DNA from: Patescibacteria group bacterium
GTDB taxonomy: Bacteria; Patescibacteriota; Microgenomatia; JBGSIU01
Direction of reading: 5' to 3'
Assembly (NCBI GenBank): GCA_041742375.1
Contig: JBGSIU010000044.1
Coordinates: 2,161 to 66,160, forward strand
Length of the DNA stretch: 64,000 bases
The notes under the pieces were generated by a model. The model did not search any database, was not told where the DNA came from, and was given only the letters and a program-made list of their open reading frames with translations. Made by a program: the position numbers and the translations under genes. How positions within the stretch are numbered: the first letter of the stretch is position 1; each line of letters begins with the position of its first letter. This document shows, piece after piece, positions 2,074 through 63,121 of the stretch.

Positions 2074-2994
2074 ATGAACATTCTAGTTACGGGCGGCGCG
2101 GGTTTTATCGCCTCCCACGTTACGGATTTATACATCGCAGAGGGGTATAACGTGTTAATTGTTGACGATTTGTCTTCCGGCAGCGAAAAAAATCTTAATC
2201 CCAAAGCGAAATTCGTGAAAATGGATATCCGCGATGCAAAAATCCGTGATTTGATCAAAGAGAATCACATCGAGGTGGTTAATCACCACGCCGCACAATT
2301 AAAAGTGCGCGATTCGGTGGAAAATCCCCTTAATGACGCGGACATTAATATCAAGGGTATACTTAACATTCTGGAAGTCATAAAAACTCATCCTTTGAAA
2401 AAATTCATCTTTGCCTCATCCGGCGGTGCCGTGTATGGCGAAGCGGATGTGATTCCGACGCCGGAAACGTTTATGCCGCGGCCATTGTCACCATATGGCA
2501 TCGCAAAATTGGCCAGTGAAAAATATCTCTTTTATTATCACAAAAATTTCGGGTTGAGTTACACGGCCCTGCGCTATGCAAATGTGTTTGGTCCGCGACA
2601 GGATCCATTCGGCGAAGCCGGCGTGGTCGCGATTTTTGCCAAAAAAATGCTGAAAAATGAAACACCGGTGATTAATGGCGACGGCTTGCAAACCCGCGAC
2701 TATGTTTTCGTGAAAGATGTGGCCGCCGCAAATCTCGCGGTCCTCGAAAAAGATTATTGCGGGGAAATCAATATCGGCACCGCACAAGAAATTAACGTCA
2801 ATGATTTGGCAGAAACGCTCAAAAAAGAAACCGGCTACCTTGGCGAAATCAAGCACGGCGAAGCCAAATTGGGGGAACAAAAAAGAAGTTGTTTAAATAT
2901 CTCCAAAGCAAAAAAGATTTTAAACTGGGAGCCAAAATATTATTTATCACAAGGTTTAAAAGAAACAGTGAAATATTTTAAGAAGAATTTATGA
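2074..2994 (+). CDS. NAD-dependent nucleotide-sugar epimerase/dehydratase (UDP-hexose 4-epimerase family)
   Basis: N-terminal Rossmann motif 'ILVTGGAGFIASHV'. 306 aa, with YxxxK-type SDR architecture (YGIAKLASE). Confidence 0.85.
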   Translation: MNILVTGGAGFIASHVTDLYIAEGYNVLIVDDLSSGSEKNLNPKAKFVKMDIRDAKIRDLIKENHIEVVNHHAAQLKVRDSVENPLNDADINIKGILNILEVIKTHPLKKFIFASSGGAVYGEADVIPTPETFMPRPLSPYGIAKLASEKYLFYYHKNFGLSYTALRYANVFGPRQDPFGEAGVVAIFAKKMLKNETPVINGDGLQTRDYVFVKDVAAANLAVLEKDYCGEINIGTAQEINVNDLAETLKKETGYLGEIKHGEAKLGEQKRSCLNISKAKKILNWEPKYYLSQGLKETVKYFKKNL

Positions 2995-3743
2995 TTAGCG
3001 GTAAAAAAATAATCGTCGTCATGCCCGCGTATAACGCGGAAAAAACCATCGAAAAAACCTACGCCGATTTGCCGAAAAATGTGGTTGACGAAGTGATTGT
3101 GGTGGACGATTGCTCGCGCGATCGGACGGTGGAAATCGCCAAAAAGATGGGTTTAAAAACAGTGGTGCACCAGAAAAACACGGGCTACGGCGGCAACCAG
3201 AAAACTTGTTACGCCGAAGCATTGAAAGACGGCGCGGACGTCGTTGTCATGCTGCACCCCGACTATCAATATGACAGCACGCTCACGCCAGATTTGGTGA
3301 AGCCGATTATCGAAGGAAGATATGATTTGATGTTTGGTTCCCGCATTCGCACGCGTGTTGAGGTTTTGGCCGGCGGCATGCCCTTGAAAAAATATATTTT
3401 GAACAGAATTTTCTGCGTCATTGAAAATCTGGTTCTCGGTGTCAATTTCACCGAGCATTTTAGCGGCTACCGCGCGTATTCAAAAAAAGTTTTGCAAGCC
3501 TTGCCATTCAAAAAATTTTCTGATGATTTTGCCTTTGATCAGGAATTCATGATCTCGGCCATTGCCGCGGGTTTTCGCGTGGGCGAAATTCCGGTCCCTG
3601 TCCGCTATTTTTCCGAAGCCTCGTCCATCAAATGGTGGCGCGGCAGCAAATTCCTTTTGCAAACTCTTTCGACGCTTCTAAAATTTATTATCTTCAAAAT
3701 TGGCAGAGTTAAATTTAAGATTTTTATATCGCAAAAGGCATGA
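2991..3743 (+). CDS. GT2 glycosyltransferase, polyprenol-phosphate-sugar synthase-like (Dpm1/GtrB/ArnC-type)
   Basis: 'IIVVMPAYNAEKTIEKT...VIVVDDCSRDRT' N-terminus. Has a DxD region. The ATGA overlap with the upstream gene indicates an operon. Confidence 0.85.
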   Translation: MISGKKIIVVMPAYNAEKTIEKTYADLPKNVVDEVIVVDDCSRDRTVEIAKKMGLKTVVHQKNTGYGGNQKTCYAEALKDGADVVVMLHPDYQYDSTLTPDLVKPIIEGRYDLMFGSRIRTRVEVLAGGMPLKKYILNRIFCVIENLVLGVNFTEHFSGYRAYSKKVLQALPFKKFSDDFAFDQEFMISAIAAGFRVGEIPVPVRYFSEASSIKWWRGSKFLLQTLSTLLKFIIFKIGRVKFKIFISQKA

Positions 3744-5437
3744 AAAATTTCAAAGCAGATATATTTTTTATTTTCGTATTGCTTATTGTCAGTATTTGGG
3801 CGCTAAAGAGTCTTTTTGGTGGAGCATATTACACGTCTCAAGATGGAATTCATCAAATTGCTAGGCTTTATCATTTTAAGCTTGCTTTGAAGGACGGCGT
3901 GTTCCCGCCGCGATGGGCAAATCAGGCGATGTATGGTTTCGGCTATCCGCTTTTCGAATTTAATTATCATTTGCCCTGGTATGCGGCGATGCCATTAATT
4001 TTCTTGCGGGTGGATCTTTTCGACATCATTAAAATCCTGCATTTTGCCGCGTATTTTTTCTCCGGCGTTTTCATGTATTTTTTCTTAAGGGAGCTTGTAA
4101 AAAAACAATGGGTGGTCGCGGCCGGAACAATATTATTTTTAATTTCGCCGTATCGTTTTTTAAACATTTACGTCCGCAATGCCATGGGGGAAGTTTTTGC
4201 CTTCATGTTCTTTCCGCTGGTTTTTTACGCGCTTTTAAAACTCGCGCGCGCGCCAAAAGCGTGGCATGTGGTGCTTCTCTCAATTTCACTTTATGGCATC
4301 ATTTTGTCGCACGCGTTGTCGTTTGTGATTTTTTTGCCGTCCATCCTCATTTTTGCCGCGTATTGTTTGTTGATTACCCAAAACAAAAAACATTTTGTGG
4401 TTCGCGGAACGGCCGCTTTCTTATTATTCCTGTCTCTTTCGGCATATTATCTTTTTCCGGCATATCTTGAGAAAAGTTACACGATTTTTGATTCCAAGTT
4501 CCAGCAAATCTATGGGGGTGAACTTTTGGACATCAAAAAAGTAATATATACCCCTTGGGGTTACGCTGGCAATGGGAACCCCGCAGACACGGTGATGAGT
4601 TTTCAATTTGGGATTGCCAATTGGGCGGCGGCACTCAGCGGATTGATTGCGGTTTTGTACTTTGTTATCAAAAGAAAAATTAAGGAAAATTTATTGATTG
4701 TGATTTCATCTCTCACAATTTTATTTTCTATTTCTCTTACCATGAAGCAATCTTTGCCATTCTGGGACATGATGGCGAAAATTTTTGCGATTGATTTTCC
4801 GTGGAAGTTGGTGGGAATTGCGGTTTTGTGGTCTGGCATTTTATTGTCTCTGGTTCTTAATAAAATCAAGAATCCCGCCAAATATTTCATTTTGATCGTG
4901 ATTTTGGGACTCGCTTTCTATGCCAACCGCAACCACATTCGTGTCAATAAATATGTTTCGTTTGACATTCCCATGGCCGTCTTTTTCGAAAAAAGCACCA
5001 ACACGGAAGACGAATATCTGCCTCAGAGAGTGAATGGTTTTAATTTTGGCGACGACAAAAATATGACGATCAAGTTAATCGACCGAGTCGAGACAGATAA
5101 AAAAGGAAAAGTGTCTCGCGTTGTGGATAAAAATCAAGAATTCTCTTTTAATTATGTTGGCCCGGAAGCAAATGCCACCGTTAAAAAAATCTACTTTCCT
5201 GGCTGGTCAGTAATGACAAATGATAATCATAAAATAAATTTTACCTTCGAAAATGGTTTTTTTAATTTCAAATTGCCCAAAGGCAACTCGAATATCAAGA
5301 TTATGTATGAGGGAACCCTTCTGGTGAGGACATCAACGCTTCTGTCTGTTTTTGCTTGGGGGTTAACACTCGCATATTTTTTATCCCTTATTGGTACCTA
5401 TGTTAAAAACAAAAGTAAAAAAAATAATCAAAAATAA
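3740..5437 (+). CDS. Large polytopic membrane protein, probable GT-C glycosyltransferase (YfhO/ArnT-like acceptor glycosylase)
   Basis: 565 aa with >10 predicted TM helices and a C-terminal soluble domain. It lies immediately downstream of the GT2, with the start overlapping the upstream stop (ATGA). Confidence 0.6.
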   Translation: MKNFKADIFFIFVLLIVSIWALKSLFGGAYYTSQDGIHQIARLYHFKLALKDGVFPPRWANQAMYGFGYPLFEFNYHLPWYAAMPLIFLRVDLFDIIKILHFAAYFFSGVFMYFFLRELVKKQWVVAAGTILFLISPYRFLNIYVRNAMGEVFAFMFFPLVFYALLKLARAPKAWHVVLLSISLYGIILSHALSFVIFLPSILIFAAYCLLITQNKKHFVVRGTAAFLLFLSLSAYYLFPAYLEKSYTIFDSKFQQIYGGELLDIKKVIYTPWGYAGNGNPADTVMSFQFGIANWAAALSGLIAVLYFVIKRKIKENLLIVISSLTILFSISLTMKQSLPFWDMMAKIFAIDFPWKLVGIAVLWSGILLSLVLNKIKNPAKYFILIVILGLAFYANRNHIRVNKYVSFDIPMAVFFEKSTNTEDEYLPQRVNGFNFGDDKNMTIKLIDRVETDKKGKVSRVVDKNQEFSFNYVGPEANATVKKIYFPGWSVMTNDNHKINFTFENGFFNFKLPKGNSNIKIMYEGTLLVRTSTLLSVFAWGLTLAYFLSLIGTYVKNKSKKNNQK

Positions 5438-6851
5438 TCTTTCACCGATTTTAGTTTCCGTTTTTTGTTTTTTCCTCTTTTTTGATGGTTTTCTAACATA
5501 TTTTCATCAAGACGATTTTATTCAAATGTTTTATTCCCAAAATCTAAAATCAGTTTTAGATGCTTTTAACATTTTTCGCTCCGCAGAATTTGCTTTTTAC
5601 AGACCAATTCCCACCCAGCTATATTTTTTTATCACTAAATCAATTTTTGGTTGGAACCCGCTTGGGTATCACGTGGTTAATTTTTTAATTTTTGCAGTTA
5701 ATATTTTTCTTTTTTATCATTTAGTCAAAACGCTTGTTAATAAAAAAATTGCATCGTTCGCGGTGATTTTTTTTGCCGTCAACACAACTCATTTTGCCCC
5801 GCTCCATGCGGCGTCATACGTACATGAACTTTTTCTGGTTTTATTCTCACTTTTATCATGCTTATCTTTTGCCAAATATTTAAAATCTGCGGTTCGTTTT
5901 AATTTATTCTTAGCGGTTTTGTTTTTTATAGGTGCTTTAATGTCAAAGGAAACCGCGGTCGTCGTCCCGGGGCTTTTGGCAATCGAATATCTGCTTTTTT
6001 CTCCCAAAAAGTCAATGATAAGCTTTTTTAAAATTATTTTATTATTTTTAATTTTTTTAATATCGTATTTATCTTTTCATTTTTTTTTATATGGGATGCC
6101 GGAAAGTTCTTCTTACAGATTAGTTATTGGAAAAGAAAATTTAAAAATGTATTTATGGTATTTTATTTGGGGTCTTTCCGCACCGAATATTTTGATTGAT
6201 TTTATAGAACCCGGATTAAAAATTAAAAATGTTTTTTTTGATATTACAAAAATTAATGGTTATGTATTTTTTATGGGATTTTTTGCATTAATGATCTTTC
6301 TTGGAATATTATTTACCATCAATTTGTTAAAAAAACGAGACAATAATAAGGTTCTAATTTTTTCTTTTCTTTGGTTTTTCCTAAGTTTGATTCCCCTAGT
6401 TGTTTTTCCACTTCATAAACTTGCCATCGAACAAGCGCTTGCCATCCTTGGACTATCTCTTTTTGTTGGTTTTGTTATTTCAAAGTTTTCGAACAAAGTG
6501 GCTTTTTGTTTTATATGTCTATATGTTCTTATTGCTATTAATTCAGCAGTGATCGAAAGACGCACTCATTGGATTATTAGGAGTTCCATTCAGGCAAAAA
6601 ACATCGTTAATTTGATTAAAAATGCAAAAATAGGTTCCAAGAAACAAATATATTTTAAAGATGGCGCGGTGGTGATTCCTGAATATGGTTCGTCAAAACA
6701 GATCTTTCTTGCTTCGGGAAACGGAAAACTGTTTTCCCTGATGTTTGGAATCATAGAGCGGCACGTGCACTTTGAAAGCGTTAATCCGCTACCTCTAAAT
6801 TACACTGGCGAAATTCTGAAAGTTGACTCTTCCAAGCTTCTAGGTTATTGA
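5391..6851 (+). CDS. Polytopic membrane protein, GT-C-like (PMT/ArnT-type, with a 'DD' loop motif)
   Basis: 486 aa, hydrophobic, with the motif 'HQDDF...FYRPIPTQLYFF'. Paralogous to the convergent minus-strand gene 6781..8430. The true start may be the ATG at 5400. Confidence 0.55.
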   Translation: MVPMLKTKVKKIIKNNLSPILVSVFCFFLFFDGFLTYFHQDDFIQMFYSQNLKSVLDAFNIFRSAEFAFYRPIPTQLYFFITKSIFGWNPLGYHVVNFLIFAVNIFLFYHLVKTLVNKKIASFAVIFFAVNTTHFAPLHAASYVHELFLVLFSLLSCLSFAKYLKSAVRFNLFLAVLFFIGALMSKETAVVVPGLLAIEYLLFSPKKSMISFFKIILLFLIFLISYLSFHFFLYGMPESSSYRLVIGKENLKMYLWYFIWGLSAPNILIDFIEPGLKIKNVFFDITKINGYVFFMGFFALMIFLGILFTINLLKKRDNNKVLIFSFLWFFLSLIPLVVFPLHKLAIEQALAILGLSLFVGFVISKFSNKVAFCFICLYVLIAINSAVIERRTHWIIRSSIQAKNIVNLIKNAKIGSKKQIYFKDGAVVIPEYGSSKQIFLASGNGKLFSLMFGIIERHVHFESVNPLPLNYTGEILKVDSSKLLGY

Positions 6852-8430
6852 TTTTTAGAAAATTAAGACCTCCGGTTTTTTCCATAATCAGTTTTTGTTC
6901 ATAAATATTTAAACACCGATCCATGTCATAGTAGTTTTCCTGCAGGTTCTGGGGGAGCAGAGAAGATTTCAGAAGATATCTTTTGCTGAAATCATCGGTT
7001 AAAACATTAAAAGCCACCCCGTCAGCAAGCGTCGCACGTGCACCGGGACTATCTATCCGCCAAACGACATAGTGAATCTTTTTTGGAATTTTCAGCTTTT
7101 CAAAAGCGGTAAACCTGTTTTTCACTTCAAACGGATCGGCAAAAACCCAGTGATTGTTGTCGAGGAATCTCAAAGTTAAAAAACTGGTTAAGATAAATGA
7201 CAAAATCACCAGATATGTCAGCGCATATTTATGGTTTGAATATATCACGGAAGCAAAAGCGATCCAGAAACCAACCTGCGCCAAAAAAGGATAATATGGA
7301 TATACTCTTTTTGGAATCACCAGAATGGGGAGAAGTGCCATAAAAAACCAAAGTACGCCAAAGAGGGTAATTTTATTAAAAATAGATCTTGGATTTTTGA
7401 TTAAAGCCAAAATGCCGGTGATGAACAACAATATAACGTTGAGGCTTAGAATAAGCGGATAGATTTGGAACGTTTCCGTAAACCACTGGTCCGTAAAAGG
7501 AAATTGGCGGGGGGCAAGATGAACCGTGGTTGGCTCGGAAAAATTAAGAAGCCAAGCAAAAAAAACAATAACATTTTTAATTATCATTTGAGGAGAAAAA
7601 CCCAAAGAATATGAATCCGTGGTGGGGATTTTAAAAACGATAAAACGAAAAATAAGATAAAAGAGGACGATACCAAACTGAAAAGTGAGGCGTAGAAAAG
7701 TTTGCTTATTCATTTTTCTGAAAAAAATAACCGTTAAAAACATTATGGTAGGCAAGACCACGGCGGTTTCGATTGACAGTAGTGATAAAACAAGAAAAAG
7801 TTCCGGAAGAAAAAATTTGCAGGCTCGTTTCTTATCAAACAGTAAAAAATAGAGCAAAATATAAAATAAAGCAATCGAGTTAAACGTTGAAGCCACCCAA
7901 GTCAATTCATAAAAATGGGTGGCGCTGATTGAAAAAAGAAACGCGGTAAAAAACCCGGTTAAATTATTCCGGAGAAGTTTTTTGACAAAATAAAAAACCA
8001 AAACTGAATTAACGGAATGAAGAATAAGTTGAAAAAAATGATAATAGTTAGCATTTAAACCGAAAAGCCGGTAGAATGTGAAATAAAACAGTTGCAAAGA
8101 AATCGGACGGTAATAAATCGTGTCGCTTCGCGGAATAAAGAATTGAAAAAACTCTCTTAAATTTGAAGCTCGGGAGATAGAAAAAAGAAAAAAATCATCT
8201 TTAAAAAAATAGACAGAAAAAGATTTACGAAATAATATAAAATTAAGGGAAGAAAAAAAAGCAACCTGCACGAAAAATAAAAATATATGAAAATATCTAT
8301 CCTTATTCCCGTGTTTAACGAAGAGGAAACGATGATGCAAATTCTTGATAAAGTTTCTTCGGTTAATATCTTCCATATAAAAAAAGAAATAATTGTTATT
8401 GATGATTGTTCTACAGACCGAACTGCTCAA
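6781..8430 (-). CDS. Polytopic membrane protein, GT-C-like; inverted paralog of 5391..6851
   Basis: 549 aa. Shares the 'FKDDFF...YYRPISLQLFYF' motif with the upstream + strand gene. Its 3' end overlaps that gene by ~70 bp. Confidence 0.55.
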   Translation of the reverse strand: MSSSVCRTIINNNYFFFYMEDINRRNFIKNLHHRFLFVKHGNKDRYFHIFLFFVQVAFFSSLNFILFRKSFSVYFFKDDFFLFSISRASNLREFFQFFIPRSDTIYYRPISLQLFYFTFYRLFGLNANYYHFFQLILHSVNSVLVFYFVKKLLRNNLTGFFTAFLFSISATHFYELTWVASTFNSIALFYILLYFLLFDKKRACKFFLPELFLVLSLLSIETAVVLPTIMFLTVIFFRKMNKQTFLRLTFQFGIVLFYLIFRFIVFKIPTTDSYSLGFSPQMIIKNVIVFFAWLLNFSEPTTVHLAPRQFPFTDQWFTETFQIYPLILSLNVILLFITGILALIKNPRSIFNKITLFGVLWFFMALLPILVIPKRVYPYYPFLAQVGFWIAFASVIYSNHKYALTYLVILSFILTSFLTLRFLDNNHWVFADPFEVKNRFTAFEKLKIPKKIHYVVWRIDSPGARATLADGVAFNVLTDDFSKRYLLKSSLLPQNLQENYYDMDRCLNIYEQKLIMEKTGGLNFLKINNLEAWKSQLSEFRQCNLEVAD

Positions 8431-8970
8431 ATTTTAATGAAAAGCGGCAATAAAATCAAATATCTGAGAAATGAAAAAAATCGCGGGAAAGGATATTCGG
8501 TGCGACGCGGTATTAAAGTGGCAACGGGTGACGTCATGATCATGCAGGATGCGGATTTGGAATATGACCCCAACGATTATGAAAAGCTTCTAAAACCGAT
8601 TTTCGACGGGAAAGCAAATGTTGTTTTTGGCTCGCGTTTCACCGGAGAACATAACAATCTTTTCTTCACGCATTTCATCGCCAACAAATTTATCACCTTT
8701 TTAATCGACGTCTTTTTTAACACCACCTTATCCGATGTTGAAGTGGGATACAAAGTTTTTAAAAAAAGCTTGCTTGATAAAATTAATCTTCGTGAAGACC
8801 GATTTAGTTTTGAGATTGAAATCACCGCCAAAATTTTAAAACTTAAAGAAAAAATCTTTGAAGTGCCGATTTCGTATACGGGCCGTGGCTATGAAGAAGG
8901 AAAAAAAATCGGATGGAAAGATGGTCTTCAGGCTTTGTGGTGCGTTTTTAAATATCGATTTTTTGTATGA
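8287..8970 (+). CDS. GT2 glycosyltransferase (polyprenol-phosphate sugar synthase-like)
   Basis: 'ISILIPVFNEEETMMQILDKV...IIVIDDCSTDRT' and a 'QDADLEYD' DxD motif. Confidence 0.85.
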   Translation: MKISILIPVFNEEETMMQILDKVSSVNIFHIKKEIIVIDDCSTDRTAQILMKSGNKIKYLRNEKNRGKGYSVRRGIKVATGDVMIMQDADLEYDPNDYEKLLKPIFDGKANVVFGSRFTGEHNNLFFTHFIANKFITFLIDVFFNTTLSDVEVGYKVFKKSLLDKINLREDRFSFEIEITAKILKLKEKIFEVPISYTGRGYEEGKKIGWKDGLQALWCVFKYRFFV

Positions 8971-10487
8971 AAAAATATACGATACTTCTCATCTTGATAC
9001 TCCTTCTTTCGTTCTTTCTTCGCGTTTTCCGGTTCGAAAATCGCGTTTTTATCATCGGTGACGGTGCGCGTGACATTCTTGTTGCGCGCGGCGCACTGCA
9101 GGCGAAAATAATTCCTCAGATTTCGTCTTTTTCTTCAACTGGTCCATTTGTTTTTGGACCTCATTATTATTGGCTTTTAATGGCGGTTTATTTTTTTAGT
9201 CCCGAAAGTTGGTCGATTTTTTATTATTTTCTGATTTTTCAATCCGTGTTTATGGTTTTTATTCTTGTTAAAACGGGGGAGTTGATTTGTAATAAAAAAT
9301 TCGGGCTTTTCTTGGGGCTTGTGGCGGCTGTCTCTCCGGTTTTTATCTCCCGTTCCACGGGAATAGTTCAACACGCAATCATGGCGTTCCTTGCAGCCAT
9401 TTCATTATATTATTTTGTGAAGTTTTCGAAGCGTAAAAGAACGATCGATGCTTTTTGGAGCGGATTCTGGACGGCGATTGCCATTATGATGCATTTTCAA
9501 GCAATGGGACTTCTCGTAATGTCTCTTGCTTTTTTTGTCTCATCGAGATCGATTAAGGAAAAAGTAAAAAATTCATTTTCGTATTTTTTGGGATTAATCT
9601 TGCCCTCCGCAAGTTTTATTTTTTGGGACGCGGCGCAAAACTTTGCCAACGCCCGGAATTTTCTTGATTACGTGTTAATCGGCCAAAACCGAATTTATGT
9701 GGCCAACCGCTGGACGTGGCACATCTTCAAATTTTGGCCTGAATATGCGGCGAGCCTTTTTGGCGGACAAAATCTCGTCGGAGGGATAATTCTGTATTTT
9801 GCGCTTGTGATTAGTGTTTTTCTCATCATCCGCGGTAAATTAAACAAAATCGTAAAATATCTTCTTGTATTTTTCTTGTTTTTTTACATTTATTTAAGAT
9901 TTTACAAAGGAGAAAAATCTGAAGGCTATTTGGCATTTATCCAGCCATTGACAATTATCGTCATGGCATACGGATTTTTCTGGTTGGCAAGATTTAAGAA
10001 ATTATTTTTCGTTGTTTCAACCATTATAATATTTTGCACGATTCGCGTGACACGGGATTATTATATCTCGCAAAATGTCAACGAGTTCCAGGAGCTTTCG
10101 GTCACCTTGTTGTCCCTCGAGAAAGAAACCGGCGCAAAAAAATTCGCCATCTATGATTTTGCAGATATCAAAAATCAAACTCAAACTTGGCAAGTTTCAG
10201 ATGCGTTAGCGGTTTTTTTGGGAAGCGTGAACAAGCTTGATTTTGAAAATGGTTATAAAATCGGCCTTTGTCAGGATTATTGTCCGGAAGAAAATTTGCA
10301 AGAAGTCAGGAGCGGTTTTTTTAAGGACGGCAAAAACCATCTCCTTTTAATCGGCGCGGCAAAAAAGAAATTTAATTTGGTCGCGCGTTCTCCAAAATCA
10401 GTCATGGACGAGGTGATTTTTTGGTGGAAAGATCGTCCCTTAGCTTCGCCATTTAATTTGAGGAAATATATCCTTGAAAAAATATGA
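8967..10487 (+). CDS. Polytopic membrane protein, putative GT-C-type glycosyltransferase (first of a tandem paralog pair)
   Basis: 506 aa. N-terminal TM, then 'FRFENRVFIIGDGARDILVARGALQAKIIPQ...STGPFVFGPHYYWLLMAVYFF'. About 45% identical in this region to the next gene. Confidence 0.55.
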   Translation: MKKYTILLILILLLSFFLRVFRFENRVFIIGDGARDILVARGALQAKIIPQISSFSSTGPFVFGPHYYWLLMAVYFFSPESWSIFYYFLIFQSVFMVFILVKTGELICNKKFGLFLGLVAAVSPVFISRSTGIVQHAIMAFLAAISLYYFVKFSKRKRTIDAFWSGFWTAIAIMMHFQAMGLLVMSLAFFVSSRSIKEKVKNSFSYFLGLILPSASFIFWDAAQNFANARNFLDYVLIGQNRIYVANRWTWHIFKFWPEYAASLFGGQNLVGGIILYFALVISVFLIIRGKLNKIVKYLLVFFLFFYIYLRFYKGEKSEGYLAFIQPLTIIVMAYGFFWLARFKKLFFVVSTIIIFCTIRVTRDYYISQNVNEFQELSVTLLSLEKETGAKKFAIYDFADIKNQTQTWQVSDALAVFLGSVNKLDFENGYKIGLCQDYCPEENLQEVRSGFFKDGKNHLLLIGAAKKKFNLVARSPKSVMDEVIFWWKDRPLASPFNLRKYILEKI

Positions 10488-46629: not shown

Positions 46630-46663
46630 AAAAAACACATATATTATCCGTTGTGTGAATAAT

Positions 46664-49078: not shown

Positions 49079-49093
49079 AAACCTTCTATTTAT

Positions 49094-51153: not shown

Positions 51154-51180
51154 AAATTATACCAATATTTATAAAAATTA

Positions 51181-51834: not shown

Positions 51835-51840
51835 ATTAAT

Positions 51841-53064: not shown

Positions 53065-53108
53065 AATATTGTTAATTATAATGCTTACAGTATTATAATG
53101 TTGTTGAT

Positions 53109-55627: not shown

Positions 55628-55633
55628 TAATAT

Positions 55634-56785
55634 TTGATGAATTCTAATAAAAAAACAATTGCTTTTATAACAGGAACAAGAGCGGATTATGGTATCATGC
55701 AGCCTGTTTTGCAAAAAATTCAGCAAAGCCCGAAATTAAAACTCCAACTATACGCGACAGGCATGCATTTAATGTCTGATTATGGCCATACAATTGATAT
55801 TGTTAAACGTGATTTCCCAGAAGTTTCGACAATTAACGTTGTTTTTAAAACCAATAATCGTTTAGGCATGGCTCGTTTTACTTCTCAACTCCTCAGTAAA
55901 CTGACAGAAATTTTTGCAAAAAATCGCCCAGATCTGTCTTTAGTATTTAGTGATCGATCCGAGATGCTGTGCGTAGCGATTACTTCTTTATATTTTGGTA
56001 TACCTATTGTTCATATTCATGGAGGCGATATAACAAACACTATTGATGATTCGACTCGTCATGCCATTAGCAAAATGTCTCATATCCATTTTCCTCCAAC
56101 AGAAGAAGCAAAAAATCGACTAATTAACATGGGAGAAGAAAAATGGCGAATTCATGTTGTTGGTGCTCTTGGTCTTGATTCATCTGCCAATAAAAATCTT
56201 TTAGCAAGAAAAGAATTGTTTGAGAAATTTAAAATTGCCACAGGATCAAAATTTGTTTTAGTCACTCAACATCCGGTCAGCGAAGAAATAAATGAAGCTG
56301 CAAAGCAGATGAAAGAAACGATAGAAGCGATTAAAAAAATAAATTTGCCGGTAATAGTTATATACCCAAATGCTGATGCAGGTAGCCGTGATATGATAAA
56401 AATCATAAATAAAGAAAAAAATAATCCAGTATTCCATATTTTCCCCAACATCGATCATAAAATTTTTCTTTCTCTGGAAAAGGAAGCAAATGTTTGGGTA
56501 GGTAATAGTAGCGCCGGAATTGTGGACTCATCTTTTTATAAAACGCCCGTTGTTAATATTGGTATCAGACAGCTTGGTCGACCGCAAGGAGAAAACATTA
56601 TCAATGTTAACCATGATGCAGGAGAAATATATAAGGCGATGAAAAAATCATTATATGATAAAAAGTTTTTAAAAAAAATATCTTTTTGTCATAACTCTTG
56701 GGGCAACGGGTCTGGAACGCCAAAAATTATAAAAATATTAGAAAATCTTATAATTAATAAGAGAATGTTGATAAAACATGCATGA
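55634..56785 (+). CDS. UDP-N-acetylglucosamine 2-epimerase (hydrolysing), NeuC/LegG-like
   Basis: 'IAFITGTRADYGIMQPVLQKI...ATGMHLMSDYGHT' and 'VHIHGGDITNTIDDSTRHAISKMSHIHF'. Confidence 0.85.
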   Translation: MMNSNKKTIAFITGTRADYGIMQPVLQKIQQSPKLKLQLYATGMHLMSDYGHTIDIVKRDFPEVSTINVVFKTNNRLGMARFTSQLLSKLTEIFAKNRPDLSLVFSDRSEMLCVAITSLYFGIPIVHIHGGDITNTIDDSTRHAISKMSHIHFPPTEEAKNRLINMGEEKWRIHVVGALGLDSSANKNLLARKELFEKFKIATGSKFVLVTQHPVSEEINEAAKQMKETIEAIKKINLPVIVIYPNADAGSRDMIKIINKEKNNPVFHIFPNIDHKIFLSLEKEANVWVGNSSAGIVDSSFYKTPVVNIGIRQLGRPQGENIINVNHDAGEIYKAMKKSLYDKKFLKKISFCHNSWGNGSGTPKIIKILENLIINKRMLIKHA

Positions 56786-56791
56786 TTATAT

Positions 56792-57811
56792 ATGAAAAGT
56801 AATCTCATAAAAATTGCTGTGACAAGTGTTGGTGGGGGAGTCGGACAAAGTATTGTGAAAGCGTTAAGTGATTCTGATTATCATCTAATTGGTTTAGATG
56901 CAAATATTTTAAGCGCAGGTTTATATGCTGTTCCAGTGGCTTATATTATTCCTCGGGCAAATGAGCTCCATTATATCAGTTCACTATTAAAAATCTGTGA
57001 AAAGGAAAAATGCCGTATAATTTTTCCCGGCTCCGACACTGAATTATCAATTCTTTCGAAAAATACAAAAAGATTTGAAAAAATTGGAACAACCGTGGTC
57101 ATCAGTCGTCCAGCAGTGATTGATGCCTGTGATGACAAACTGCAGACGTATTTATTATTAAAGGATAGAATTTCCATATCTAAAACGAGAGAAGCTGAAG
57201 ATTTTTTTAATAAAAAGGCTAAATTTGACTATCCGGTCATTATTAAACAAAAAATTGGCGGTTCAAGATCAAAAAATGTTTTCTTAGTAAAAAATGAAAA
57301 CGGTCTGACAAATCTTTTTTCAAAAGATGGTTTTTATGTCAAAGACTATATTGTGCAAGAATATATTGAATGGGACGAATACACCTGTGGGAGCATAAAT
57401 CTGAACGGAAAATGTTATGGTGTCATCGTGATGAGACGGATATTAAGAGATGGTGACACGTATAAATGTTTCGTTGAAAAAAATCAAAAAATCGAAGATC
57501 TCGTATTTAAAATAATGAAGATTCTTAAACCATTTGGAGCTTGTAACGTTCAACTGCGCCTGAAGAAAAATATCCCCTATATTTTTGAAATTAATGCCCG
57601 CTGTTCTGGCACGACCGCAGCAAGAGCTATTTGTGGTTTTAATGAACCGAAAATGGTTGCTGACTATATTTGTTATGGTAAAAAGCCCTCGTTCTCTATA
57701 AAAGAACTGTCAATCTTAAGATACTGGAAAGAATTAGTTATTGAACCAAAACAGATAGAGGAAATTATAAAGACAAATAAGCTTAATAATGAGTTTTTCA
57801 CACGATTATAA
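56792..57811 (+). CDS. ATP-grasp domain protein (carboxylate-amine ligase-like)
   Basis: 339 aa. A PreATP-grasp N-terminus, then 'YPVIIKQKIGGSRSKNVFLV', 'NVQLRL' and 'IFEINARCSGTT'. Confidence 0.7.
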   Translation: MKSNLIKIAVTSVGGGVGQSIVKALSDSDYHLIGLDANILSAGLYAVPVAYIIPRANELHYISSLLKICEKEKCRIIFPGSDTELSILSKNTKRFEKIGTTVVISRPAVIDACDDKLQTYLLLKDRISISKTREAEDFFNKKAKFDYPVIIKQKIGGSRSKNVFLVKNENGLTNLFSKDGFYVKDYIVQEYIEWDEYTCGSINLNGKCYGVIVMRRILRDGDTYKCFVEKNQKIEDLVFKIMKILKPFGACNVQLRLKKNIPYIFEINARCSGTTAARAICGFNEPKMVADYICYGKKPSFSIKELSILRYWKELVIEPKQIEEIIKTNKLNNEFFTRL

Positions 57812-57821
57812 AACTACAAAT

Positions 57822-58655
57822 ATGAAAGTATTAATTGTCGGAGCAAACGGTTTCCTCGGCAGGCATCTTGTTGAAAAATGTTTAGCATATCGATGGAAAG
57901 TATCAGTCGTGTATTCTAAAAACAGAAACAATTTGCCGGCAAACTGCGAACAAATACATATTGATAACATTGATAATCTTGATGATAATTACGAAATGAT
58001 TTTTTTATCAACGGGAAATTTTTCCCTGAGTTACCACGATTTGATTAAAGCTAATGTGGAAACGATTTTAATTCTACTGAAAAAGTTTAGGAAGTCAAAA
58101 ATAATTTTTATTTCTAGTGTATCGGTATATGGCGATCAAAAAAAAATAATAAATGAGGAGACATGCTTTAATAATCCCACTATTTACGGTTTATCTAAGA
58201 TTGCAGGTGAATTCGTCACTGCGAGTTTTCGGCGATATGCGATTATCAGATTAAGTTATTTATATGGTAAAGACATGATGCCCAAATCTTTTCTGCCAAT
58301 TATATTAAGAGATGCAAAAAGAAATAGAAAAATTATATTAACTAATCAAGGAAAAAGATTGCAGGATTATCTTCATGTTGATGATGCGGCGACAATTTGC
58401 CTAAAAGCAGCTCTCCATAATAAAAACGGGATTTTTTTAGGAGCAACGGGAAAATCATACTCAAATCTTAAAGTCGCGCAAGTGATTAGTAATGACATTG
58501 AGAGATGTGAAATAGTTTTTTCTCAACTGAATAAATATTCCCCTTCGTATGTTATTAACAATAAAAAAACAAAAGATGCTTTAAACTGGTCACCTGAACA
58601 TTTATTGATTAATGACCTGCATGAATTAATTAAAAATGAAAATTGCAATTTTTAG
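57822..58655 (+). CDS. NAD-dependent epimerase/dehydratase family protein
   Basis: 'MKVLIVGANGFLGRHLVEKC' and 'YGLSKIAGE'. The ATG at 57822 avoids overlap with the upstream gene; the ORF-track start is 57789. Confidence 0.7.
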   Translation: MKVLIVGANGFLGRHLVEKCLAYRWKVSVVYSKNRNNLPANCEQIHIDNIDNLDDNYEMIFLSTGNFSLSYHDLIKANVETILILLKKFRKSKIIFISSVSVYGDQKKIINEETCFNNPTIYGLSKIAGEFVTASFRRYAIIRLSYLYGKDMMPKSFLPIILRDAKRNRKIILTNQGKRLQDYLHVDDAATICLKAALHNKNGIFLGATGKSYSNLKVAQVISNDIERCEIVFSQLNKYSPSYVINNKKTKDALNWSPEHLLINDLHELIKNENCNF

Positions 58656-59271
58656 TGACATACATGGTAATTTGCCTGCGTTTGAAATCCTCTTAAAAAC
58701 TCTTGGGAAAGTAGATCAGTATATTTTTCTTGGTGACGTTGTTAACTATGGTCCGTGGAACAATGAATGTCTTGAGCTTCTCGCAAGTTTAAACAACTGT
58801 ATTAAAATATTTGGTAATCACGATAAATATTTCATTAACAAAAAGTGCATGGGAAATACGCCTCTAGTTCAGCTATTTTTTTCATTTTGCATAAAAGAAT
58901 TTTCAGCCTTTTCCTATTTTTCTGATTTCGTGGAAAGTTACGAATTTAATCATTATTACTTTCAGCATACCATTAACCAAGAACGCGTTTACCCGGACGA
59001 TCATCTATCTCTGGAGAAGAACACAGTAATTGGTCATTCTCACTATATGTTTCATATGCAGTCAAATGGTTTCCAATTTTATAATGCAGGTAGCGTTGGG
59101 CAGAATAGAAAGTATATCAATGTAATTAACTATCTTTTATACTATCCGGATAAAGGAAAAATAGAAATGAAAAACATTGTATATAATGTTGATCGTGTTA
59201 TTAATGAGATGAAAAAGAAGGGGTATCCCAAGTTATGTATCGATTATTATTTAAATAAAAACAGATATTAA
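58636..59271 (+). CDS. Calcineurin-like metallophosphoesterase (YfcE-like)
   Basis: 'MKIAIFSDIHGNLPAF...GDVVNYGPWNNEC...GNHD'. Confidence 0.7.
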   Translation: MKIAIFSDIHGNLPAFEILLKTLGKVDQYIFLGDVVNYGPWNNECLELLASLNNCIKIFGNHDKYFINKKCMGNTPLVQLFFSFCIKEFSAFSYFSDFVESYEFNHYYFQHTINQERVYPDDHLSLEKNTVIGHSHYMFHMQSNGFQFYNAGSVGQNRKYINVINYLLYYPDKGKIEMKNIVYNVDRVINEMKKKGYPKLCIDYYLNKNRY

Positions 59272-59272
59272 C

Positions 59273-60376
59273 ATGAAGCAGTATCAAGTTGCAAAACCAT
59301 TTATCACGGACAAAGACAAAAAAAATGTTTTAAGCGTATTAAATTCAGCCAAATTGTCTCTAGGACCGAAATATCTGGAATTTGAATCAAATATAAAAAA
59401 ATACATTGGTTGTAAATATGCTTGCGCGGTGGCGAATGGCACCTGCGGTTTACATCTTGCGGTTAAAGCGCTTTCTTTAAAAAAAGGGGACGAGGTTGTT
59501 ACCTCGCCGTTTTCTTTCATTTCTTCCTCAAATTGCCTTTTATATGAACGTGTAAAACCAATATTTGTTGATATTGAGGAAGAAACATATAATATTGATC
59601 CGGATAAAATTGAGAAAGCCATAACTAGGAAAACGAAGGCAATTTTAGTTGTTCACATTTTTGGCCAAACGGCAGCGATGGATAAAATAACGCAACTGGC
59701 GAAAAAACATAATTTAAAAATTATTGAAGATGCTTGTGAAAGCATAGGGGCGGCCTACAAAAGAAAAATGGCTGGAACATTTGGACAGGTTGGTGTCTAT
59801 GCTTTTTATCCAAATAAACAGATGACGACAGGCGAGGGAGGGATGATCGTGACAAATTCAAAAAAGATAGATGCTCTTTGCAAAAGTTTGAGGAATCAGG
59901 GCAGAAACGTAAAGGGAGATTGGCTAATTCACGAGCGACTTGGATTTAATTACCGAATGGACGAAATGAGTTCGGCCCTTGGCATTACACAGCTTGAAAA
60001 ATTAAATTGGATGATTGAGGAAAAACGGAAAATAGCTGGATTGTATAATCGGCAATTAGCAAATATTCACCAAGTTATTACTCCCAAAGTTGCTGCGGAC
60101 AGGACTCATTCTTGGTTTGTCTACGTAATACGAGTTAAATATGGAGAAAGAAATAATTTGATGAAAAAATTAATGTCGCATGGTATCCAAACAAAACCTT
60201 ATTTACCCGTGATCCATCTCCAGCCATTCATGAGAAAAATGTTCCATTATAAATTGGGAGATTTTCCCGTTGCTGAGAAAATTTCTTCACAAACGCTTGC
60301 CCTGCCTTTTTATATTGGTTTAAAGGTAAAAGATATTAACAATATCTCTTCTTTAATTACAAAAATTTTGCATTAG
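59273..60376 (+). CDS. DegT/DnrJ/EryC1-family PLP aminotransferase (fourth in the window)
   Basis: 367 aa in the DegT family ('ACAVANGTCGLHLAVKAL'). Confidence 0.85.
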   Translation: MKQYQVAKPFITDKDKKNVLSVLNSAKLSLGPKYLEFESNIKKYIGCKYACAVANGTCGLHLAVKALSLKKGDEVVTSPFSFISSSNCLLYERVKPIFVDIEEETYNIDPDKIEKAITRKTKAILVVHIFGQTAAMDKITQLAKKHNLKIIEDACESIGAAYKRKMAGTFGQVGVYAFYPNKQMTTGEGGMIVTNSKKIDALCKSLRNQGRNVKGDWLIHERLGFNYRMDEMSSALGITQLEKLNWMIEEKRKIAGLYNRQLANIHQVITPKVAADRTHSWFVYVIRVKYGERNNLMKKLMSHGIQTKPYLPVIHLQPFMRKMFHYKLGDFPVAEKISSQTLALPFYIGLKVKDINNISSLITKILH

Positions 60377-60381: not shown

Positions 60382-61824
60382 ATGAATATTTTAGTTTATG
60401 GATATTACGATGAGAAAGATACGATTTCGCTGAATGAAACCCTGAAAACTATTATGAAAAAATTCCGCGTCAGGAAATATTACATAAATGCCGATTATGA
60501 TGAAAAGCTCGAACTTACACCCTTCAAAGAATTAAATAATCATGATAATCCCAGCGTTGATTGGTCGGTATTAAAACCACTTGATGGAGAATTGCTGAAA
60601 AAAATGGCAGATTGTGAAGTAACCGTGTTAAAGATGATGGATAGGCTGGAATGCGAGCAAATAAAACATGTTACCTATGCTGAAAGAAAGAGATTGTATC
60701 TGAGATACTTGAGATATTGCAACGATTTTCTCAAAAATAATAAAATCAACATGCTTCTTCATGGCAACGTTCCGCATTCGGTTTATGATTTCATTATATA
60801 TTCTCTCTGTCGAGTGAAAGGAATTCCGGTTATTTTTGTCTATCAGGTGATGGAAGATATGATGTTTTTTGAAAGTAAGTGGGAAAATCTTGGAGATGAT
60901 ATTCGGAAAGAATACGCGAGAATGGAAAAAGGGACGAACGTCACCCTTGCATATCCGTATTCTACTTTGTTCAACAAACAGACGTCGAAGAAGAACCCGG
61001 TACAATTCTATATGATAAAAGAGAATGCTATTAAAAAGTATTTTCGTGATTTGCTCATCGGCGTAAGGACCAACCCAAAAATTTTTATTAGAAAGATGAG
61101 CTCTTTGACATATTGGAAGACACAGGGAAAAGAAAGAATAAATAAATTTATTCATCTGCTTAAATCAAAAATTTTGTTTACATATTATAACGCACGAGCT
61201 GAAGTTCCTGATTTGCAGAGAAAATACATATATATCCCCTTGCATTATCAACCCGAGAGATCGACGTCGCCACTCGCAGGATCATTCGTCAACCAACTGT
61301 TAATAATTGAGATGCTTTCTGTACTTATTCCCGAAAACACATTATTATTTGTTAAAGAACATCCAAGACAGCATGACATTGGCCGCGATCGCCACTTTTA
61401 TCAAGATCTAAAGAAATACAGAAATGTAAAGTTAATGCCAAGAGATTTTGATTCGTTTACTCTCATCAATCATTGTCTTGCCGTAGCAACAGCTACGGGA
61501 ATGGCTGGTATTGAAGGATTGTTCAGAGAAAAACCTGTTATCTGGTTTGGACATGATTTTTTCCAATTCGCCCCCGGATCTTTTAGAGTTTCAAAATTGA
61601 AAGATTGTGAATATGCCTTAAACCAAATCATCAACAAACAGGTAAAACCAAAACTTTGCGATATTAAATTATATTTAAAAGCGATGGAAAAAATTGGAAT
61701 TGTTGGTTATGTAAGCCCTGATTACCGTAAAGTTTCGCTTTTGTCAACTTATGAGAACAATAGGAATATTACGGAAGGTTTAATTAGAAAAATGAAACAA
61801 CTTGGTTTTAAAACATATGAATAA
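60382..61824 (+). CDS. GT-B-like transferase (capsule-polysaccharide KpsC/KpsS/LpsZ-like or TagB/F-like); candidate CMP-sugar or CDP-alditol transferase
   Basis: 480 aa. 'YIYIPLHYQPERSTSP' and C-terminal 'NHCLAVATATGMAGIEGLFREKPVIWFGHDFF'. The family assignment is tentative. Confidence 0.35.
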   Translation: MNILVYGYYDEKDTISLNETLKTIMKKFRVRKYYINADYDEKLELTPFKELNNHDNPSVDWSVLKPLDGELLKKMADCEVTVLKMMDRLECEQIKHVTYAERKRLYLRYLRYCNDFLKNNKINMLLHGNVPHSVYDFIIYSLCRVKGIPVIFVYQVMEDMMFFESKWENLGDDIRKEYARMEKGTNVTLAYPYSTLFNKQTSKKNPVQFYMIKENAIKKYFRDLLIGVRTNPKIFIRKMSSLTYWKTQGKERINKFIHLLKSKILFTYYNARAEVPDLQRKYIYIPLHYQPERSTSPLAGSFVNQLLIIEMLSVLIPENTLLFVKEHPRQHDIGRDRHFYQDLKKYRNVKLMPRDFDSFTLINHCLAVATATGMAGIEGLFREKPVIWFGHDFFQFAPGSFRVSKLKDCEYALNQIINKQVKPKLCDIKLYLKAMEKIGIVGYVSPDYRKVSLLSTYENNRNITEGLIRKMKQLGFKTYE

Positions 61825-63121
61825 AAAAATTTCTATTATTTCTTTAGCGTGCGCGCCCTTTGCAGTTGAAGCGTATGACGAAACAGTAAAATGCTTGGAA
61901 AAAAAAGGGTGCGAAATTACACATATCGGTTTTTCCGTGAAAAACTGGATTCCTTCAGATTATCATGATGTTTCGATGACCTACCGGAAATTTAATTATC
62001 CCGTTTTTGTTATCCCGCGAGTTAATCCAGAAAGCATGCAAATTGCGTGCGTTCCCGATTATAGATTTGAGTTTCAGCGCTCGTTTGCTGAAATTCATAA
62101 ATGGTTAGTGGCTATGATACGACAGTATCACCCCGATATATTTTTAATCGATAACGAACGTCCGGTAACAATTCTTATTGCTAAAATGTTGAAGGAAGAT
62201 GCCAGGATTCCGGTTATTGCCTTTGGCTACCATAGCTTCATTTATAGTTATAACAGAATATACCGGAATATATATTGGAAAAAAATAATTGATTTGTTCC
62301 GTTTGTTCAAATATGGCATTCCCAAGAGGATAAAAAGATTATTAGGGAAAAACGATTGGGAAATTTTCGTATCATGCCCCAAGGTGGATTTATTTGGAGA
62401 AAATGAGAGCGATATTATCTGTTCAGCCTCAGGAATTGATACAAAAACGATGATCAAATATGGAGTTTCGGCATCAAAAATTATCGAGGTTGGATCTCCG
62501 TATTTTGATAAAGCGGTTAATTATAAAAACAAATTTAGAACTTTAGTAGACAAAAGAAGCAAGAAGAAAATATTGATTATCTCAAGCGCGTTTGCTTATG
62601 GAAATAAATCGAAAATCATTAACAACTATTATGAATTGGTATGCCGGATGGTTAACAAGTTAAGCGATAAATATGATTTTTATCTGCGTTTCAAACCGTC
62701 AGTTATGCTTCCTGATTTTTTACCGAAAAGGATAAAAAAAATCATTAACAAGATAAAAACTGACGATAATTCAAAAACAGCCTATGAAGCAATCTATCAT
62801 TACGATTTGATAATGGGTGATGTTTCTTTTGTTTTGTATGAAGCGTTGATTGGTAAAAGACCGATCGCGATGTTTAATTATCGCCAACCACAAAATGTTT
62901 CCGAGATAAATTTCCTGAAAAAAGAAGTAGGTATTAAAGAAATAAAAATAGAAAATACTGATTCAGAGATCGATTCAATTATATCGGTGGCTTTTTCAAA
63001 AAAATATCTTGAGCTGATATTAAAAAATTTTAAAAATCAAGAGTATAACTTATTTTATAAACTTGACGGCAAATGCGGCGAAAGAGCGGCTGCGATAATA
63101 ACTAAAACTCTTTCAAATTGA
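61802..63121 (+). CDS. TagB/TagF-like (CDP-glycerol glycerophosphotransferase-type) GT-B transferase, tentative
   Basis: C-terminal 'YDLIMGDVSFVLYEALIGKRPIAMFNY' resembles the TagF 'DxLITDYSSxxFDxxxLxKPIIF' signature. Confidence 0.35.
   Translation: MVLKHMNKKISIISLACAPFAVEAYDETVKCLEKKGCEITHIGFSVKNWIPSDYHDVSMTYRKFNYPVFVIPRVNPESMQIACVPDYRFEFQRSFAEIHKWLVAMIRQYHPDIFLIDNERPVTILIAKMLKEDARIPVIAFGYHSFIYSYNRIYRNIYWKKIIDLFRLFKYGIPKRIKRLLGKNDWEIFVSCPKVDLFGENESDIICSASGIDTKTMIKYGVSASKIIEVGSPYFDKAVNYKNKFRTLVDKRSKKKILIISSAFAYGNKSKIINNYYELVCRMVNKLSDKYDFYLRFKPSVMLPDFLPKRIKKIINKIKTDDNSKTAYEAIYHYDLIMGDVSFVLYEALIGKRPIAMFNYRQPQNVSEINFLKKEVGIKEIKIENTDSEIDSIISVAFSKKYLELILKNFKNQEYNLFYKLDGKCGERAAAIITKTLSN

Follow-up and report, generated by a model that had tools for sequence, protein, structure and literature searches.

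The 64,000-nt stretch of DNA analyzed here (the window; contig JBGSIU010000044.1 of assembly GCA_041742375.1, positions 2,161 to 66,160 of the forward strand) comes from a Patescibacteria group bacterium of the Microgenomatia and carries a glycan-biosynthesis gene cluster, in which 13 genes encode membrane glycosyltransferases of the GT-C type. Over this full length we kept the open reading frames (ORFs) of at least 100 amino acids. The resulting 63 ORFs span 62,994 of the 64,000 bases, i.e., the window is 98% coding, and 60 of them lie on the + strand. Same-strand junctions (n = 57) comprise 17 overlaps of 4 nt of the ATGA/GTGA type, 11 other overlaps and 23 gaps of 30 nt or less. A first-pass annotation, made from the letters alone, had described the genes at 2074–63121 as some 60 consecutive, translationally coupled + strand genes. 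The dense, overlap-rich layout is real, but the run is not strictly consecutive: two polytopic genes inside the + array, g7 (6781–8271) and g18 (18090–19211), are inverted and share 71 and 108 nt, respectively, at the 3' end with the preceding + gene. Overlaps occur at 28 of the 57 junctions, from which translational coupling of the cluster genes may be inferred. Moreover, 2074 and 63121 do not delimit the cluster. It runs off both window ends, with a GT-C fragment (1–403) and a complete GT-C gene (551–2008) on the left and further polytopic genes past position 64,000 on the right.

The 13 GT-C genes take up about 17.5 kb (27%) of the window. Exactly 11 of them lie within 2074–63121, where about 11 had been counted before, with the minus-strand pair g7 and g18 missed. 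In all 12 complete GT-Cs, the first transmembrane (TM) segment is closely followed by an Asp/Glu motif. Unless noted otherwise, the genes described in the following are on the + strand. The leftmost, g1 (1–403), is a 3' fragment of a gene that starts upstream of the window; it shares 30% identity with g2 over the C-terminal domain, and the corresponding gene call in the Logan assemblies runs off the contig end. The protein g2 (551–2008; 485 amino acids, about eight TM segments, DWDE motif after TM1) has no match in Pfam, and its N-terminus weakly resembles Agl23 (TIGR03663, 3.2e-6). PMT_2-type GT-Cs were found in g6 (5391–6851; PF13231 5.7e-10, DD motif after TM1), g9 (8967–10487; 1.3e-8), g21 (21763–23184; 7.5e-14) and, with a weak match under the cut-off, g26 (26809–28275; 0.0045, about eight TM segments, GDE motif after TM1). 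Two further genes are paralogues of these, i.e., minus-strand g7 of g6 (28% identity over 407 amino acids, E 1e-22; start set to 8271 after the Logan gene call) and g10 (10484–12046) of g9 (44% over 512 amino acids). The GT-C g5 (3740–5437; 565 amino acids) is of the YfhO/PTPS_related type; its own YfhO match is weak, its homologues bear PF10131 and PF09586, and D35 is invariant in alignment A3. A PIG-V-like (GT76) GT-C is encoded by g13 (14255–15430; PF04188 2.9e-8), and g11 (12043–13437; PF09852 4.6e-29) and g19 (19275–20678; PF09852 4.6e-44) are GT-C-clan membrane proteins of the DUF2079 family.

The remaining GT-C, the small minus-strand g18, was recognized by structure prediction alone, and its family occurs only in Microgenomates-type metagenome sequences. 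Its structural neighbors include PimE, AftA and AftB; AglB, STT3 and PglB are neighbors at the level of the general GT-C fold only. We had considered g18 as a candidate for Wzy or WaaL, which is ruled out by its clear GT-C fold. None of the 13 window GT-Cs is an oligosaccharyltransferase of the STT3/PglB or Wzy_C type. Those of PMT type match PF13231 only; PF02366 (PMT, GT39) has no match in window proteins and matches weakly in some proteins of related loci. Judged by their families, PMT_2, YfhO/PTPS_related and PIG-V-like GT-Cs would use polyprenyl-phosphate-monosaccharide donors, as their known members do; the DUF2079 and g18 families are without characterized members.

Genes that could supply such donors are interleaved with the GT-C genes. 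Small GT2 enzymes are encoded by g4 (2991–3743; soluble; PF00535; NCBIfam AglJ, PpgS and dolichyl-phosphate-hexose transferase, below cut-off), g8 (8287–8970; PF00535 5.7e-34; NCBIfam AglJ 1.3e-37, also PgfS, ArnC and PpgS) and g15 (16051–16722; full-length NCBIfam match to PpgS, 2.7e-41, below cut-off). A fourth enzyme, g38 (38226–39155), is a membrane-anchored GT2 of the GtrB/ArnC/PgfS type with C-terminal TM segments, matching PgfS (1.2e-43) and ArnC (3.1e-36) over the full length, both below cut-off. All four, g4, g8, g15 and g38, have polyprenyl-phosphate-sugar synthases as their best NCBIfam matches. By sequence we count four to six candidate synthase genes. A further GT2 is encoded by g12 (13479–14231; PF00535, probable ATT start). 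Only 27 nt downstream of g15 starts g16 (16750–17085; PF10066 7.9e-23), a small DUF2304 membrane protein of the GacJ/Rv3632 type and putative activator. The DUF2304 proteins GacJ and Rv3632 stimulate GacI and PpgS, respectively (bioRxiv 10.1101/180810), and the g15-g16 pair mirrors PpgS-Rv3632 and GacI-GacJ. As the GT-Cs adjoin candidate undecaprenyl-phosphate (Und-P)-sugar synthases and a DUF2304 partner, which is the signature of multi-component transmembrane glycosylation (PMC8035078), the locus points to extracytoplasmic glycosylation from lipid-phosphate-monosaccharides. To this extent, the corresponding proposal of the first-pass annotation is supported.

This arrangement is not confined to one contig. 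Closest relatives of g2, g5 and g18 are found in Candidatus Gottesmanbacteria, Curtissbacteria, Daviesbacteria, Amesbacteria, Levybacteria and other metagenome-assembled genomes of Microgenomates/Patescibacteria. In genome and metagenome scans, g2 homologues occurred in 81 loci, within Microgenomates GT-C arrays, with relatives at about 27–38% identity. Among the related loci, the 31 that reach 20 kb contain a median of seven ORFs matching window GT-Cs (range 5–9), and 98.8% of the matching ORFs lie on one strand. The recurrent order is several GT-Cs, an SDR (short-chain dehydrogenase/reductase) gene, GT2, GT-C, GT2, GT4, GT-C, GT2, DUF2304 and GT2. Because this order recurs across dozens of related loci, the array layout is not due to chance. 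The SDR gene of the window, g3 (2074–2994; nucleotide-sugar epimerase/dehydratase, PF01370 9.4e-60, PF16363), keeps its position ahead of the GT2-GT-C pair in the relatives. In 38 related loci the g2 homologue and the g3-like SDR are separated by a FAD amine-oxidase-like oxidoreductase of about 540 amino acids (e.g., L033, 12324–13955), which is missing from the window. Membrane protein families of related loci that are unmatched in the window are again PMT_2 or YfhO and, in five loci, of the Wzx type. The closest relative with a long locus (L088, with a g5 orthologue at 62% identity) keeps g5, g6, minus-strand g7, g8, g9 and the GT2-DUF2304-GT4 trio. Upstream of its g5 orthologue (1–9900), restriction-modification genes (MmeI-type, DpnI, D12 methylase, Mrr) replace the GT-Cs, and the edge of the glycan locus is hence variable. 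Identical copies of g5, g18 and g62 were present on a 69,314-bp NCBI contig and in Logan assemblies of SRR28170473. We conclude that the GT-C array is a lineage trait of Microgenomates and not a quirk of one contig. An AglB-type N-glycosylation system or archaeal origin was rejected, since STT3 is lacking and all close homologues stem from bacteria of the candidate phyla radiation (CPR).

The left half of the window also encodes a set of cytoplasmic enzymes. Six glycosyltransferases are GT4 or GT4-like, i.e., g17 (17082–18197; PF00534 3.3e-28), g20 (20675–21766; 5.3e-37), g23 (23964–25088; 5.6e-41), g25 (25729–26784; 1.9e-24), g27 (28272–29273; GT4-like, 4.1e-9) and g29 (30047–31153; GT4-like and weak, 1.4e-5, just under the cut-off). 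One GT2, g22 (23156–23959; PF00535), resembles the polymer-building EpsE (NCBIfam 1.6e-32) and TuaG (9.4e-25). Three S-adenosylmethionine (SAM) methyltransferases accompany them: g14 (15449–16054; PF13489, PF08241), g24 (25072–25722; PF08241) and g28 (29280–30050; PF08241 5.5e-19). They are followed by an adjacent exporter pair. The ABC-2 permease g30 (31168–32016) is of the Wzm type (PF01061 4.5e-7, above cut-off), with the galactan exporter Wzm/RfbD as best NCBIfam match, and g31 (31968–32786) is a Wzt-type ATPase without the C-terminal carbohydrate-binding domain (PF00005; NCBIfam TagH 3.7e-63, galactan Wzt/RfbE 8e-52). Adjacent Wzm and Wzt genes and a set of cytoplasmic GT-A/GT-B glycosyltransferases, as found in ABC-transporter pathways, are hence both present.

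A block of about 30 kb (32.8–60.4 kb) is devoted to nucleotide sugars and nonulosonic acids, as assigned with Pfam and NCBIfam. It starts with g32–g37 (32823–38198), i.e., PseB (483 bits) and PseC (512 bits), both above the NCBIfam cut-off, a GFO/MocA oxidoreductase, a hexapeptide acyltransferase, a DegT aminotransferase and a PglD-like acyltransferase. Downstream of g38, the genes g39–g47 (39152–48042) encode an SDR, a DegT-methyltransferase fusion, an aldo-keto reductase, a cytidylyltransferase, a class-III aminotransferase, a FemAB-like protein, a methyltransferase, a PIG-L deacetylase and a formyltransferase. In the fusion protein g40 (40149–41903) a DegT-type aminotransferase is joined to a SAM methyltransferase domain. 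PseI (484 bits, above cut-off), a GNAT acetyltransferase and a PseF-like cytidylyltransferase (143 bits, below cut-off) follow in g48–g50 (48029–50295). Next are g51–g54 (50299–54494), with a HisF/HisH-like pair, the amidotransferase WbuX (362 bits, above cut-off) and a B12-radical SAM enzyme. The last genes of the block, g55–g60 (54584–60376), encode a second NeuB-type synthase (probable ATT start; 378 bits for the shortened g55 ORF vs. a cut-off of 400), a NeuC-type hydrolyzing epimerase (400 bits, above cut-off), an ATP-grasp protein, an SDR, a metallophosphoesterase and a DegT protein. The block totals two cytidylyltransferases and five DegT aminotransferases, next to acyl-, formyl- and methyltransferases. 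Thus, the gene content listed by the first-pass annotation, i.e., GT-C, GT2, GT4, methyltransferases, Wzm/Wzt and nucleotide-sugar enzymes, is confirmed by Pfam and NCBIfam. For the pseudaminic acid pathway, g49 (GNAT) could be PseH and g62 (GT-B fold) could be PseG; we regard both as candidates only.

Two soluble enzymes end the + strand series within the window. The first, g61 (60382–61824), is KpsC/KpsS-like (Capsule_synth) and a candidate CMP-nonulosonate transferase. Its match to PF05159 (8.5e-10) is partial, covering profile positions 184–268 or about 80 residues only, and it matches the KpsC structure 6mgb (2.2e-6). CMP-Kdo synthesis genes were not recognized in the window. The pseudaminyltransferase KpsS1 is a relative of KpsC/KpsS (PMC12887879). 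The second, g62 (61817–63121), is a GT-B-fold enzyme, for which the AlphaFold2 model has a mean confidence (pLDDT) of 89.1 and finds UDP-GlcNAc 2-epimerases, MurG and BshA as best Foldseek matches. Its family is very small: an exhaustive search of 1.84 billion clustered proteins yielded 59 representatives at E ≤ 1e-3, and a word-indexed search found g62 alone. As the modeled GT-B fold fits glycosyltransferases and PseG/epimerase types alike, g62 could be either a PseG-type hydrolase or a new nonulosonate transferase.

The first-pass annotation had found no WecA/MraY- or WbaP-type initiating transferase and no Wzx, Wzy or WaaL, and this holds. With thresholds of E ≤ 0.1 for membrane proteins, E ≤ 0.01 for the re-scanned g7 and E ≤ 0.01–0.001 for the remaining ORFs, none of the 63 ORFs matched the Pfam families PF00953 (MraY/WecA), PF02397 (Bac_transf), PF01943/PF13440/PF14667 (Wzx), PF04932 (Wzy_C/WaaL), PF02516 (STT3), PF03816 (LCP) or PF04138 (GtrA). 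E. coli WecA and C. jejuni PglC, which Pfam confirmed as PF00953 and PF02397, served as phmmer seeds and found nothing at E ≤ 10 among six-frame ORFs of at least 60 amino acids from the window and 88 fetched loci (1.25 Mb). The DGxDG motif of MraY/WecA and the GPRP motif of Bac_transf were likewise not found in the window or the 88 loci, nor was the oligosaccharyltransferase motif WWD[YWF]G in any window protein. In 81 related loci, the 10 kb flanking the g2 homologue on each side also lacked initiating transferases. Pfam Wzx models do match in related loci, which serves as a positive control for the window. Every polytopic protein of the window was assigned to GT-C or Wzm, and a final ligase, either LCP (PF03816) or WaaL-type (PF04932), was not found in it.

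Part of this pattern is to be expected. Wzx and Wzy are not used in ABC-transporter pathways, and their lack is expected given that Wzm/Wzt is present. WaaL is an outer-membrane lipopolysaccharide ligase, whose monoderm analogue would be an LCP enzyme; CPR bacteria are described as monoderm, so a lack of WaaL is expected as well. The absences in the window hence carry less weight than they were given before, because of Wzm/Wzt, the monoderm cell and a WecA-type initiator, GacO, that in streptococci is encoded outside its cluster. Moreover, the earlier proposal that extracytoplasmic decoration takes place here rather than classic assembly on undecaprenyl diphosphate (Und-PP) is not supported by the gene content. 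The six GT4s, the TuaG/EpsE-like GT2, the methyltransferases, Wzm/Wzt and soluble g61 and g62 need an acceptor on the cytoplasmic side of the membrane, which suggests that a lipid-linked glycan is also assembled in the cytoplasm and exported.

We therefore propose, with a modest lean in its favor, that the locus is a supercluster for glycoconjugates of the cell envelope in a monoderm CPR bacterium, which combines three modules each known elsewhere. From the observed gene content, family and fold assignments, absences and conserved synteny, we infer the donors, the acceptor, the sequence of steps and where in the cell they take place, as follows. A nucleotide-sugar factory (about 32.8–60.4 kb) would make CMP-pseudaminic acid, di-N-acyl amino sugars and another nonulosonic acid, of the NeuB/NeuC type, in amidino and acyl forms. 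The six GT4s, the TuaG/EpsE-like GT2, the methyltransferases and the KpsC-like and GT-B enzymes would build a lipid-linked glycan on the inner membrane face, to be exported by Wzm/Wzt. Four to six GT2 synthases, one of them with a DUF2304 activator, would charge Und-P with single sugars. On the outer side of the membrane, at least 13 GT-Cs would then add these sugars to the exported glycan, one linkage at a time, and perhaps to surface proteins as well. For the initiating phosphoglycosyl transferase, an Und-P-sugar flippase and the final ligase, we presume genes outside the window.

Several points weigh against the supercluster model. All GT2 matches to polyprenyl-phosphate-sugar synthases are under the curated NCBIfam cut-offs. 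An Und-P-sugar flippase of the GtrA (PF04138) or Wzx type was not found in the window, and a Wzx-type gene is carried by five related loci and by L087. Initiation on Und-PP is assumed, as the window has no initiating transferase, and no feature of the locus identifies the acceptor as wall polymer, lipoglycan or protein. The flank covered is about 3 kb on the downstream side only. There, the Logan contig L089, identical with the window over 3,167 nt, continues through minus-strand g63 (63113–64000, running past the window end; SAM methyltransferase, PF13489 1.1e-25, 313 amino acids in L089) into two + strand polytopic genes (L089 3239–6207, about 64,072–67,040 in window numbering). One encodes 513 amino acids with an FWDD motif, the other at least 476 amino acids with about 11 TM segments. 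This pair had no match in Pfam, in the PDB (phmmer) or in local iterative searches with hidden Markov models, and hhalign comparisons with the g18 and g5 family alignments gave low probabilities (27%, 29% and 5.5%).

The downstream pair could belong to a conventional Wzx/Wzy or O-antigen-type locus, with initiator, polymerase and ligase just outside the window or among unrecognized ORFs. Such a locus would fit with a cluster that runs off both ends and is followed by two polytopic proteins without family match, and Wzy proteins often escape profile searches. We nevertheless consider it very improbable: the polytopic proteins of the window are all accounted for as GT-C or Wzm, an ABC exporter is present, an initiating transferase occurs in none and a Wzx-type gene in only five of the 81 loci with g2 homologues, and the CPR cell is monoderm according to the literature.

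Initiation may also proceed without a phosphoglycosyl transferase. In this case a lipoglycan would be started on a glycerolipid by a PimA-like GT4 or by the KpsS/KpsC-like g61, exported by Wzm/Wzt and then extended outside by the GT-C line, as in mycobacterial lipomannan (LM) and lipoarabinomannan (LAM). PimA, a GT4 enzyme, initiates on phosphatidylinositol. The lack of an initiating transferase in the window and within 10 kb of the g2 homologue in 81 loci agrees with such a start, as do the Capsule_synth/KpsC-like region of g61, PimE and AftA among the structural neighbors of g18 and the weak resemblance of the GT4s to the glycolipid synthases Mgs, GlcN-PG synthase and IagA/BgsA. KpsS is known to initiate group 2 capsule on phosphatidylglycerol (PMC12887879). 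However, the GT4 similarities are generic and far under the cut-offs, the g61 match of about 80 residues fits a KpsS1-like pseudaminyltransferase equally well, and initiator genes often sit outside their cluster, which makes their absence weak evidence. A glycerolipid-started lipoglycan is hence quite unlikely in our view. Quite improbable, too, is the bolder proposition that the main surface glycan of Microgenomates is built almost wholly outside the cell by a conserved, operon-like line of a dozen or more GT-Cs, which use a few Und-P-sugars. A GT4 or the KpsS-like enzyme would begin this glycan on a membrane lipid that the cell has scavenged, and not on Und-PP, without phosphoglycosyl transferase. 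If true, such a lipoglycan pathway would be a hybrid of LAM and group 2 capsule synthesis in an organism unable to make its own lipids.

For the supercluster model, the best-characterized parallel is the streptococcal group A carbohydrate. In gacA-L, and in related rhamnopolysaccharide and enterococcal polysaccharide antigen (EPA) loci, cytoplasmic glycosyltransferases (rhamnosyltransferases in the group A system), an ABC exporter (GacDE), the GacI/GacJ pair and the PMT_2-type GT-C GacL are clustered as well. Wzy and WaaL are also lacking, and the WecA-type GacO is encoded elsewhere on the chromosome. In contrast, the group A system has one GT-C and one lipid-phosphate-sugar donor, where the window has 13 GT-Cs and candidates for four to six donors, and it includes the Wzx-type GacK, for which no counterpart was found in the window. 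Rhamnose genes were not recognized in the window, which has the 30-kb nonulosonic-acid block instead, and the lineages differ (CPR vs. Firmicutes).

In scale, the closest parallel is mycobacterial arabinogalactan and LAM synthesis. In mycobacteria and corynebacteria, the assembly of arabinogalactan and LM/LAM involves a lipid-linked core that is made in the cytoplasm and exported by Wzm/Wzt (RfbD/E, with RfbD the best NCBIfam match of g30), and many GT-Cs extend it outside, sharing a few polyprenyl-phosphate-sugar donors. PpgS-Rv3632 matches g15-g16, and AftA, AftB and PimE are structural neighbors of g18. However, sequence identity is low, and arabinose or galactofuranose genes were not recognized in the window. 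Mycobacterial GT-C genes are scattered round the chromosome and are not known to form one co-directional array.

The combination of a GT2 Und-P-sugar synthase with a GT-C of the PMT_2 or YfhO type, encoded by adjacent genes, is known from multi-component transmembrane glycosylation (PMC8035078). Systems of the GtrA/GtrB/GtrV type (CsbB/GtcA/YfhO, GtlA/GtlB, CsdAB) share this logic and the gene adjacency. The window differs in that it has no GtrA-family flippase, its GT-Cs far exceed one per donor and the module is embedded in a polymer-synthesis and export locus. Decoration of polymers and proteins outside the membrane by GtrB-type GT2 and GT-C enzymes has already been documented (PMC8035078, PMC12041528).

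Protein acceptors could even be the main ones. In chiefly protein O-glycosylation, modeled on streptococcal GtrB/PgtC2 and PgfS/PgfE/PgfM1, the GT-Cs would move single sugars from Und-P-sugars to Ser/Thr-rich S-layer, pilin or membrane proteins, and nonulosonic acids would be added to the same proteins. Here, g38 has PgfS as best match and is followed by an SDR epimerase-type gene, as PgfS is by pgfE, and the window has no polymer ligase (LCP, WaaL). Pseudaminic and legionaminic acids are typical protein glycans. Streptococcal GT-Cs of the YfhO and PMT_2 types glycosylate proteins (PMC12041528), and YfhO-type GT-Cs are shared with the window. However, g38 scores far under the PgfS cut-off (150 vs. 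500 bits), and the window has no PF02366, STT3 or Wzy_C/PglL match and encodes no candidate acceptor, i.e., no adhesin or Ser/Thr-rich protein. Moreover, six GT4s and Wzm/Wzt indicate a lipid-linked polymer, and 13 GT-Cs for five or six donors fit linkage-specific polymer building better than decoration with single sugars. We hence regard protein O-glycosylation as the chief function as unlikely.

The nonulosonic-acid module of the supercluster resembles pseudaminic/legionaminic acid clusters with a KpsS1-type (GT118) transferase, where PseB, PseC, PseI, a PseF-like enzyme and an adjoining KpsC/KpsS-related soluble enzyme are found as well. Here, however, PseG and PseH have no clear assignment, the g61 match covers about 80 residues only and the window has an additional NeuB/NeuC pathway along with many tailoring enzymes.

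The mechanism of GT2 and GT-C enzymes is thus known, and current models of glycan assembly are not overturned. What is new is the conserved, operon-like concentration of GT-Cs and its scale in a CPR lineage: the unusual scale noted before is confirmed by a locus of more than 60 kb with 13 GT-Cs. In the literature searched on CPR glycosylation, DUF2079 and Gottesmanbacteria glycosyltransferases, we found no description of these arrays. A large part of bacterial diversity falls within the CPR or Patescibacteria. These bacteria are believed to live bound to host cells, and to our knowledge almost nothing is known of their surface coat. More than 60 kb spent on surface glycans in a small-genome lineage marks the glycan coat as a major investment, which is probably relevant to host attachment, phage defense or envelope stability. 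Furthermore, 13 diverse small GT-Cs beside their likely donor synthases form a compact set that could help to resolve GT-C specificity.

The window reads cleanly in the standard bacterial genetic code; tRNA and Rfam scans of it gave no matches. Its G+C content ranges from 31 to 43%, with 0.43 at 2–4 kb and a decrease to 0.31 at 28–32 kb, where GT4, methyltransferase and Wzm genes are located; the variation in composition across the locus is modest. In g12 (GT2) and g55 (NeuB-like), conserved N-terminal motifs lie upstream of the first ATG, GTG or TTG and just past an in-frame stop (13476–13540 and 54581–54665, respectively). The only start codons on offer there are ATT (13479 for g12, 54584 or 54590 for g55). 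As the conserved N-termini precede every canonical start codon, this suggests ATT starts for both genes. The Logan gene caller shortened g55 likewise.

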